A stretch of 64,000 nucleotides of DNA from Paratractidigestivibacter sp. Its GTDB lineage: Bacteria > Bacteroidota > Bacteroidia > Bacteroidales > Bacteroidaceae. The translations under genes were made by a program, and so were the position numbers. The notes under the pieces were generated by a model that was given only the letters and a program-made list of their open reading frames with translations, had not been told where the DNA came from and did no database searches. Positions 3,132 through 64,000 of this stretch are shown in pieces. Within the stretch, counting starts at the first letter, position 1; every line of letters begins with the position of its first letter. The stretch is taken from contig CAVGNV010000002.1 in the NCBI GenBank assembly GCA_963630695.1, forward strand, positions 79,197 through 143,196, given 5' to 3'.

Positions 3132-3154
3132 TCGTATAGCTACGATAATCCTCT

Positions 3155-3202
3155 AAAGGGGAAAGTCTTACCACACGAAAGGTAAGGTTTTCCCCTTTCT
3201 TT
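3155..3202 (+). terminator. Intrinsic terminator after GH5
   Basis: AAAGGGGAAAGTCTTACC / GGTAAGGTTTTCCCCTTT stem followed by CTTT. Confidence 0.8.
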
Positions 3203-3219
3203 ATGCCCCTTTGAAAGGT

Positions 3220-3368
3220 GAAAACAATTTATTTTCCCATGAAAATCAATTTATTTTTTGATGAAAAATAAATTAAAATTGCATCCCATTCTGTACCTTT
3301 TGCGTTATCATTCGGCTTCTTTCGGATTACCAAACCATCTCTATCGTATCTAGATAGAGGTGCTATTG
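3220..3368. repeat. Dispersed 22-bp-period element, copy 1
   Basis: AAAAT(C/A)AATT(T/G)ATTTT-like units with AATT centres at 3226, 3248, 3271; degenerate in-phase units ending TTTG/TTCG/ATCG/ATTG at 3302, 3324, 3346, 3368. Confidence 0.75.
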
Positions 3369-3494
3369 CTTTAAAAGTGTTATTCTTTCTCCTTCTGATA
3401 CTATATTTACGGCGATTTTTGTAGGTTGATTTATTTTGCTCAATTAGGCAAAGTCTTTAATAAAAAAGTATTATGATATTGTGCAAAATAATCG

Positions 3495-28702: not shown

Positions 28703-28803
28703 CTCTTCCTTCTGTTCATAGCTTACCAGTTACTCTTCATTAGCATCTGTTTCCCATTCCCATACGTCCTCGTTCATCTACTGACGGAGGTGCTTCGAGC
28801 GGG

Positions 28804-28930
28804 ATAATCAATTTATTTTTCCTACAAAATTAATTTATTTTTCTGATATAAATAATTTATTTTTCAGTTTAAAATCATATCCATCGGAAAACGAAAGCGC
28901 CTTTACAGGCTTTTGAAAGTGCCCGTTTCG
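28804..28930. repeat. Dispersed 22-bp-period element, copy 2
   Basis: AATTTATTTTT units with AATT at 28810, 28832, 28854; further phased GAAAGYGCC at 28893 and 28915. Confidence 0.8.
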
Positions 28931-28970
28931 GCTTGTTCTCCCGATGCTCATGTTGTCCCGAATGTGAGAT

Positions 28971-46586: not shown

Positions 46587-46684
46587 TTTCGTCCTTTTTG
46601 AGGGCAAAGTTAAGCATTCCAAACGAATTGACAAAATCTCTTATATAAATATATGTGAAACCAGCGTCACACCTTTCGTATGCC

Positions 46685-46832
46685 ACTGGGATAGGTTTTG
46701 CATCCTCAAATGAGCCTTCTCGTTATCTCGTATAGCCTCTATCGGAAGTAAAAATAAATTGATTTTCGGAGAAAAATAAATTAATTTCTATTCAAAAATA
46801 AATTGATTTCTCATCTGATAGCGCCTCTAATG
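46685..46832. repeat. Dispersed 22-bp-period element, copy 3 (opposite orientation)
   Basis: AAAATAAATT(G/A)ATTT units with AATT at 46757, 46779, 46801; flanking phased units such as CGTATAGCCTCTATCG (46729) and GATAGCGCCTCTAATG (46817). Confidence 0.8.
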
Positions 46833-46900
46833 TAAGATGATAATTTGTCTATGTGGGTGAAAAAGCGTACCTTTGCAGTCTATATTTTGCTTATAAAACC

Positions 46901-63763: not shown

Positions 63764-63813
63764 GCGCCACGCTCACGCTTCTGTGAGCTTAGGCTTTGCC
63801 CGTTTCATCCGTA

Positions 63814-63961
63814 TAAGCAGAGTGGTTTTACGCTACCAAAGCGCTCTCCTTATCATGCCATAAAGATGGTTTGACAATGCAAACCACATGGTTTTAAACT
63901 AGAAATCAATTTGTTTTTGGAAGAAAATCAATTTATTTTTCCGTCAAAATCAATTTACTTT
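63814..63961. repeat. Dispersed 22-bp-period element, copy 4
   Basis: AAATCAATTT(G/A)YTTT units with AATT at 63908, 63930, 63952; in-phase TGGTTT at 63823, 63867, 63889. Confidence 0.8.
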
Positions 63962-64000
63962 TCCTTCTAAAAGGAGCTCCGTTACATTGTGAAATCATAC

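Follow-up and report, generated by a model that had tools for sequence, protein, structure and literature searches.

PINSR-related arrays of 22-bp dyads are evenly spaced in a Prevotella genome and may act as protein-bound architectural nodes

The closest described relative of the repeat reported here is PINSR, a 188-bp element of the Prevotella intermedia/nigrescens group whose function is unknown (Naito et al., PMC4755523). PINSR and the arrays described below are both intergenic and non-coding, exceed 100 copies per genome, lack terminal inverted repeats and are mostly conserved among strains (PMC4755523). In Porphyromonas gingivalis, BrickBuilt is a MITE formed around a tandem array with a period of about 22-23 bp, as is a 343-bp element of the sister species examined here, whose terminal repeat resembles the ends of ISPg3/MITE239; BrickBuilt contains a variable number of direct 23-nt repeats, whereas the arrays have three fixed core dyads (PMC4596501). 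Unlike BrickBuilt, most array copies, including all those in the genome under study, lack MITE ends and show purifying selection. The REP/BIME elements of Escherichia coli are likewise dispersed intergenic palindromic mosaics, and BIME-2 elements are described as transcription-independent gyrase sites and proposed contributors to genome organisation (PMC6379681). The arrays differ from REP/BIME in showing neither stem-loop covariation nor any sign of an adjoining partner gene, and their geometry is not that of the gyrase motif. PATCs of Caenorhabditis elegans share with the arrays transposon-borne minisatellites, helically phased A/T tracts and structural co-option, but they are eukaryotic, Helitron-derived mechanical insulators with a 10-bp period, described as extended and as expressly distinct from short protein motifs (bioRxiv 10.64898/2026.08.08.743475). 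The arrays, in contrast, are short, dyadic, base-specific, phased at 11.0 bp and evenly spaced. The element is thus an interspersed intergenic repeat of the kind of PINSR, BIME and BrickBuilt, with a lattice-like spacing that is absent from the literature searched.

The window, a stretch of 64,000 nucleotides (G000:C2:79197-143196), belongs to the 2.67-Mb genome under study (G000) and contains four arrays of the main type, class I (Table 1). All four had been located correctly by the original prediction, as triplets of a 16-bp quasi-palindrome, and their neighbours (GH5/AXE1, carboxylesterase/GH3, DUF1599/CCA-type polymerase, rpsO) are indeed functionally unrelated. That prediction had centred each palindrome on an even AATT and found 22-bp spacing in seven of eight cases. 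The triplets stand, and the even-centred 16-mer is replaced by an odd-centred 17-mer (AA-W-TT), under which all eight spacings are 22 bp; the single value of 23 arose because an even centre had been assumed.

Table 1. Positions of arrays and array-bearing elements (sites 1-4 in window coordinates; others by contig or locus)
Feature	Coordinates	Strand	Remarks
Class I array, site 1	3152..3371	.	units -4 to +5 in 22-bp register; between GH5 (ends 3131) and AXE1 (ORF from 3481)
Core of site 1	3220..3280	.	three 17-bp AT dyads, centres 3228, 3250, 3272
Class I array, site 2	28714..28933	.	core 28804-28864, centres 28812, 28834, 28856; between GH3 and carboxylesterase genes on - strand; kept in G287
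Class I array, site 3	46682..46879	.	core 46750-46810, centres 46758, 46780, 46802; between divergent DUF1599 and CCA-type polymerase genes; kept in G287
Class I array, site 4	63812..64000	.	core 63902-63962, centres 63910, 63932, 63954; downstream of rpsO; continues beyond window end
Class II elements, G000	C1:198412, C2:43145, C2:70994, C3:92511, C4:84155, C6:44672, C7:11635
Class II elements, G000, rest of the 13	C8:1693, C10:37485, C11:62538, C15:29495, C16:19675, C34:20653
MITE with array, G287	L190:1502-1845		343 bp, IS982-like ends
MITE with array, G287	L188:1518-1861		343 bp, IS982-like ends

None of the window's four copies has terminal repeats, and their orthologous sites are occupied in the sister species (G287). 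Site 1 also carries an array at the orthologous position in a further relative (G324), which at site 3 can be aligned over the entire region; at site 4 the array of the sister species lies about 7 kb further from rpsO. The left arm of site 1 overlaps a terminator-like hairpin at about 3155-3198, recognised by eye, where the terminator scan made no call; the scan called a different hairpin at 3336-3362. Arm unit +4 of site 3 (46858-46879), upstream of the CCA-type gene, contains a TAnnTTTG-type motif, of the kind known from the Bacteroidetes -7 promoter element. Arm units may also serve as components of promoters or terminators. Similarity to the consensus sequences of IHF, Fis and CodY and to the Bacteroidetes promoter offers tentative leads only. 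An Rfam search of the window returned one tRNA and no match above the gathering score for the arrays.

Genome-wide scanning with a PWM, as had been proposed, revealed 107 class I triplets in G000, 104 of them with exact 22/22 spacing. At a PWM score of at least 25, 105 triplets were found at 22 bp and none at each of eight other periods. The core unit is an odd-centred 17-bp dyad, AAAAWHAA-W-TTDWTTTT, and three such units form a core of 61 bp; a fourth, at +/-44, is present in none of the 107 copies. On each side, overlooked by the original prediction, lie three and sometimes four degenerate 22-bp dyads in the register of the core, whose centres are GC-rich and whose positions -6 and +6 are A and T, respectively, so that the arms reach +/-99 bp and the whole array is a row of dyads with a 22-bp period. 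Information content falls to background beyond about +/-110 bp, which delimits an element of about nine units and ~200 bp. Neither a hidden orientation (EM 135.1 versus null 134.3-134.7) nor any left-right asymmetry was detected among class I copies. Identity between nearest-neighbour copies in G000 has a median of 64%, falling to 53% outside the core units; these copies are old.

At 11.0 bp, though not at 10.5, the AA/TT/AT steps of the core share a phase with those of both arms, and the AT periodicity of the arms is maximal at 10.75-11 bp. Periodicity at 11.0 bp exceeds the genome's 90th percentile in 94% of class I copies and in 100% of the core-less class II copies described below. A signal of about 11 bp is commonly associated with negatively supercoiled DNA (PMC4132750). 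Of the 107 copies, 96 lie between called ORFs, nine at contig ends and two within short, doubtful ORFs. They occur in all gene orientations at widely varying distances from starts and stops, with an enrichment at convergent gene ends (32 of 97 hosts; odds ratio 2.3, P=0.0005).

The original prediction could name no described family for the element. This is not wholly correct: the arms are homologous to PINSR. At the four PINSR loci defined by the paper's amplicon primers, four units stand in 22-bp register with 11-17 bits on the G000 arm matrix, accompanied by a weaker fifth, and a class I profile matched all four loci (E about 1e-12) through the arms only (profile positions 5-89 and 133-217). 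Similarity to these primer-defined loci is confined to the arm units and does not extend along the whole 188-bp consensus, while class I shares the intergenic, non-coding, high-copy character of PINSR and its lack of terminal inverted repeats. Tandem 22-bp dyads sharing one register, with A at -6 and T at +6, are common to PINSR, the arms of class I and the class II arrays; we define these as a PINSR-like 22-bp scaffold superfamily, to which, judged from sequence, PINSR belongs. The two nevertheless differ: PINSR has no AT-dyad core and no two-fold symmetry, and its copies are far more alike. The coordinates listed for PINSR are uneven, about 2 kb to more than 150 kb apart, whereas class I arrays are even, and the available text of the PINSR paper does not mention a 22-bp period, dyads or spacing (PMC4755523).

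We compared G000 with 1.13 Mb (about 40%) of the 2.8-Mb sister genome, at about 87% nucleotide identity. This portion contains 64 arrays, of which 43 are orthologous with G000 sites, plus one below threshold. Across 42 aligned ortholog pairs, the AA and TT flanking the centre showed a single change in 504 sites; changes at position 3 of the core unit were C/T only (63/63), and those at position 4 were almost all A/T (62/65). For reference, identity was 67.5% at fourfold-degenerate sites (58,085 sites) and 60% in the linkers. This conservation indicates that class I arrays at orthologous sites are under strong purifying selection. Neither in the core nor in the arms is there covariation between the left and right half-sites, whose complementarity is at or below column expectation; thus neither RNA nor cruciform pairing is being maintained, which rules out selection on a hairpin or RNA and sets the arrays apart from REP/BIME palindromes, whose stem-loops are kept by base pairing. 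The negative RNA folding z (mean -3.2 in 25 sampled copies) arises because the dyads are repeated, and the single-stranded DNA fold z of site 3 is -0.09. Unit inversion as the origin of the central A/T flips is unsupported.

The arrays are also distributed with striking regularity. Class I gaps in G000 (n=68) range from 10,970 to 50,336 bp, with a mean of 22.4 kb and a CV of 0.40, and none of 2000 random intergenic placements, matched for gene orientation or not, came close (CV 0.77-0.88; largest minimum 3.8 kb). Regularity is better in base pairs than in gene number (0.38 versus 0.45). A scan with the arm matrix alone revealed 13 core-less arrays, designated class II, located within class I gaps. 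For all 12 that share a contig with class I, the distance to the class I copy is 11.4 kb or more (P about 6e-8), which only 25% of empty intergenic regions reach; when both classes are pooled (n=120), the minimum is still 10,970 bp and the CV 0.38. By comparison, all 15 other lag-22 tandem hits, which have no scaffold, lie 1.4-10.2 kb from an array, indicating that the exclusion is specific to scaffold arrays. To our knowledge, a hard minimum spacing has not been reported for REPs, and the arrays have one; we consider such a minimum, holding across unrelated sequence classes and for newly transposed copies, to be unusual for bacterial repeats.

G000 also contains ordinary 22-bp minisatellites of unrelated sequence (C1:62619, C1:429565, C2:65749, C12:19212, C44:565 and others), which have the same period without the A/T scaffold or the spacing rule. 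The class II copies can be aligned over about 365 bp with no gaps; they are 53-65% alike, have conserved end motifs and at one end resemble the start of PINSR. By sequence, they have the appearance of an older insertion family of ~365 bp. At the counterparts of class II sites, the sister species carries a class I array within the corresponding intergenic region in one case, a MITE-borne copy in another, and an empty site in two more.

Even spacing recurs in the sister species (48 gaps, minimum 7,069 bp, CV 0.36) and in a third genome, G018, in which 400 kb of 2.5 Mb, with both classes mixed, gave 15 gaps with a minimum of 13.6 kb and a CV of 0.32 (0/1000 draws). It was not significant in the 388 kb of G289 (eight gaps, CV 0.62, P=0.30), where class I and class II copies lie 7.5-8.6 kb apart. 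Separately, several G000 contigs (C26, C27, C40, C41, C45-C47 and C51) carry no arrays and have a GC content of 0.40-0.44, versus 0.46; they are possibly recently acquired DNA.

How new copies arrive is evident in the sister species. Nine of its arrays occupy syntenic sites at which G000 lacks an array: five lie within a MITE, one reflects loss of the core in G000, and three involve other indels. The MITE is 342-344 bp long with 17-bp terminal inverted repeats and 87-93% identity between copies; target-site duplications of 6-9 bp are perfect at four of ten copies examined and imperfect at most others, and five insertions have clean empty sites in G000. Terminal repeats, duplications, empty sites and homogeneous copies thus mark this 343-bp carrier as a MITE, apparently an undescribed one. 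It has 41 matches in the sister species, many of them halves at contig ends; G324 has one full copy, at a site shared with G287, and G007 a fragment, while searches of G000 and of plasmids returned no match. Of 18 terminal positions, 14 agree with the ends of an IS982 element in G013, and such ends occur at one of three IS982 loci. The assignment to the IS982 family is inferred, because searches of G000, G287 and G324 revealed no IS982 transposase.

The MITE copies follow the spacing as well. In the sister species, none of the seven internal copies is closer than 7 kb to an older array (P 0.0006-0.0016), and eight of eight further copies, measurable on one side only, are 11-22 kb away. Mobile delivery is therefore real, and the persistence of copies is constrained by arrays that are only about 64% alike. 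The proposal that the element is a non-autonomous mobile repeat accordingly applies to the young MITE-borne subset of the sister species and not to the window's four copies, a distinction also borne out by the presence/absence and target-duplication comparison, in which orthologous copies are shared and the young subset shows empty sites and duplications. Class I copies of the window and of G000 as a whole, with 64% nearest identity, have no terminal repeat nearby, and no terminal-repeat remnants were found near G000 arrays. Six solitary ends resembling the MITE terminal repeat do occur in G000 (C1:415618, C23:1160, C26:31278, C27:26900, C3:12841, C31:26195), all well away from arrays; neither a mate nor a transposase was seen within 1.3 kb of them or up to the end of the contig. 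At C1:~371,700 of G000, a decayed array retains its left arm, with the core replaced by a long hairpin-like sequence; the array is intact in the sister species.

Arrays with the same 22-bp period of dyad units also accompany DUF6078 (PF19555) genes, although each such gene has its own palindrome. Of the 16 loci examined, 14 have an adjacent lag-22 array with a similarity of at least 0.64, one a weaker array (0.59), and one is best at lag 23. At locus L279 (G213:C15), the gene (1040-1477) stands beside an array at ~808-880 whose unit contains the central 13 bp of class I, a sequence match which suggests that DUF6078-linked arrays are a possible origin of the class I core. The gene was found in none of G000, G287, G324 and G018, nor in five of eight high-copy scaffold carriers; in G000, PF19555 and a custom profile gave no match (best E 0.07, no conserved cysteine pattern), which separates the G000 arrays from the DUF6078-linked ones. 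DUF6078 thus cannot be the present reader of the arrays, and as a candidate reader it was rejected, showing no association with high copy number (Fisher P=0.23). The protein has invariant cysteines and a confidently predicted helical C-terminal domain (model from 10 sequences, pLDDT 76). A fold search with this model gave no significant match, its weak rows including Cro/XRE-type helix-turn-helix proteins, and a literature search for DUF6078 retrieved no paper with the term.

Exact AT-core triplets occur in 10 of 300 genomes of the genus and are abundant in five, a pattern that undercounts carriers, given that it finds none in G018, which has AT-core arrays. At the level of the order, five of 300 genomes gave one or two matches each, which we regard as chance. 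A looser scaffold pattern was found in 26 of 50 genomes of the genus and 49 of 250 of the family, with the reversed control pattern also responding in several genomes. A scan of a genome collection yielded at least 80 loci; among the matches listed, 78 of 80 belong to Prevotella or Bacteroidaceae, and two archaeal loci score poorly on the core matrix. Viral contigs contributed six loci. The exact core is absent from 290 of 300 genomes and the scaffold from 24 of 50, which makes a universal essential role unlikely unless other sequence classes substitute. No paper describing this architecture or spacing was retrieved by a literature search covering mainly openly accessible papers.

Collectively, 107 evenly spaced copies, purifying selection on the duplex, and the lack of asymmetry and covariation uphold the view that this is a genome-wide structural element and not a pathway operator. 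The fixed 22-bp dyads, their two-fold symmetry and the constraint on individual bases suggest that protein dimers line up along a single face of the helix, compatible with the earlier suggestion of same-face sites for an oligomeric protein, for which a binder can be offered as a candidate only. Neither SMC above the cut-off nor ScpB nor MukB was found in any of the five genomes in each search; a Hi-C study likewise reported no known condensin in two Bacteroidetes and left chromosome folding open (PMC10197239). Six HU/IHF-family matches are present in G000, and all five genomes searched have HU/IHF genes. Their presence does not discriminate, because G002, which has no AT-core pattern match, has them too. 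The dyad geometry, the weaker fit of gyrase and naked curvature, the lack of SMC, ScpB and MukB matches and the six HU/IHF matches together favour an architectural nucleoprotein node. We therefore propose, with a probability of roughly 0.55, that the arrays are protein-bound architectural nodes, most plausibly bound by HU/IHF, which split the chromosome into units of ~20 kb and whose spacing is kept by selection; the HU/IHF identity is a guess that we would credit with about half of that confidence.

Under this proposal, a cooperative row of DNA-architectural protein dimers would dock on the ~200-bp array, one dimer per 22-bp unit on a single helical face, with the three AT-rich core dyads nucleating binding and the degenerate arms extending it. 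On negatively supercoiled DNA, phasing at 11.0 bp would promote left-handed coiling, and the arrays might thereby mark loop-sized chromosome units about every 20 kb. Spacing would arise through selection, a copy landing in a long gap being kept and one within about 7-11 kb of another being lost.

Among other explanations, it is unlikely that the arrays serve as strong sites for gyrase or topoisomerase IV, comparable to E. coli BIME-2 or Mu SGS, one per supercoil domain and relieving transcription-driven supercoils. A centre with two periodic arms recalls the 130-bp gyrase motif with its 10.75-bp GC oscillation (PMC6379681); the arm periodicity is similar, even spacing would suit such a role, and the enrichment at convergent gene ends would fit a topoisomerase. 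The gyrase motif, however, has a centre of ~36 bp and arms of 47 bp and is highly degenerate (PMC6379681), whereas the array is built of 22-bp dyad units around a much longer core with near-invariant bases, and class II, without any core, obeys the same spacing.

Quite unlikely, too, is that the arrays are selfish or relic repeats, MITE-borne or derived from DUF6078-linked arrays, with no host function and a spacing that results from insertion exclusion or loss of nearby copies. The array-carrying MITE with its empty sites, the resemblance of class II to an older insertion family and the G213 array with a class I-like 13-bp core are consistent with such an origin. Against it stand the orthology of 43 of the 64 sister-species arrays, strong purifying selection, the lack of terminal repeats and the absence of both an IS982 transposase and a DUF6078 gene from G000 and G287. 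Because avoidance extends to copies ~64% alike and across classes, recombination between near-identical copies cannot explain the spacing.

We judge it very unlikely that the arrays act as naked DNA, with phased A/T tracts that bend on underwinding and pin plectoneme tips without a specific protein. In a simple implementation of the wedge model (parameter table of PMC6301789), underwinding by 5% raises the curvature of class I over 150 bp from 64 to 105 degrees, compared with 67-70 for other intergenic DNA, a trend seen under both sign conventions, and the Helitron-derived PATCs offer a eukaryotic precedent (bioRxiv 10.64898/2026.08.08.743475). Relaxed curvature over 73 bp is ordinary (62 versus 58 degrees, with 7% of copies above the intergenic 90th percentile), however, and the class II result varies with the sign convention. 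Moreover, curvature alone would require no invariant AA-W-TT, C/T-only positions, dyad symmetry or fixed three-unit core. The suggestion of a curved insulator is thus weakly supported: in the model, class I copies show no unusual curvature in the relaxed state and acquire it only on underwinding. A role as operators for a single global transcription factor, or as RNA elements associated with terminators or transcript stability, is highly improbable: dyad symmetry, the intergenic location of 96 of 107 copies, the RNA folding z and the overlap of site 1 arms with terminator-like hairpins would suit it, but the copies occupy all gene-orientation contexts with convergent ends enriched and widely varying start and stop distances, show no compensatory pairing, no single-stranded folding at site 3 and no Rfam match, and a regulon is not expected to be evenly spaced in base pairs.

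The preferred reading, protein-bound nodes kept apart by selection, admits a bolder and more doubtful extension that we advance tentatively: in condensin-less Prevotella, 11-bp-phased protein-docking arrays ~20 kb apart by selection may form an anchor lattice, in which the sequence classes are interchangeable and MITEs have been co-opted to refill gaps. PINSR, hitherto an orphan repeat, is now tied to a family-wide 22-bp scaffold, and the arrays, evenly spaced, selected and protein-footprint-like, provide a concrete candidate for chromosome folding in Prevotella. If true, the anchor lattice would represent a new way in which bacteria organise their chromosomes, and PINSR-type repeats across the Bacteroidaceae would thereby gain a function.
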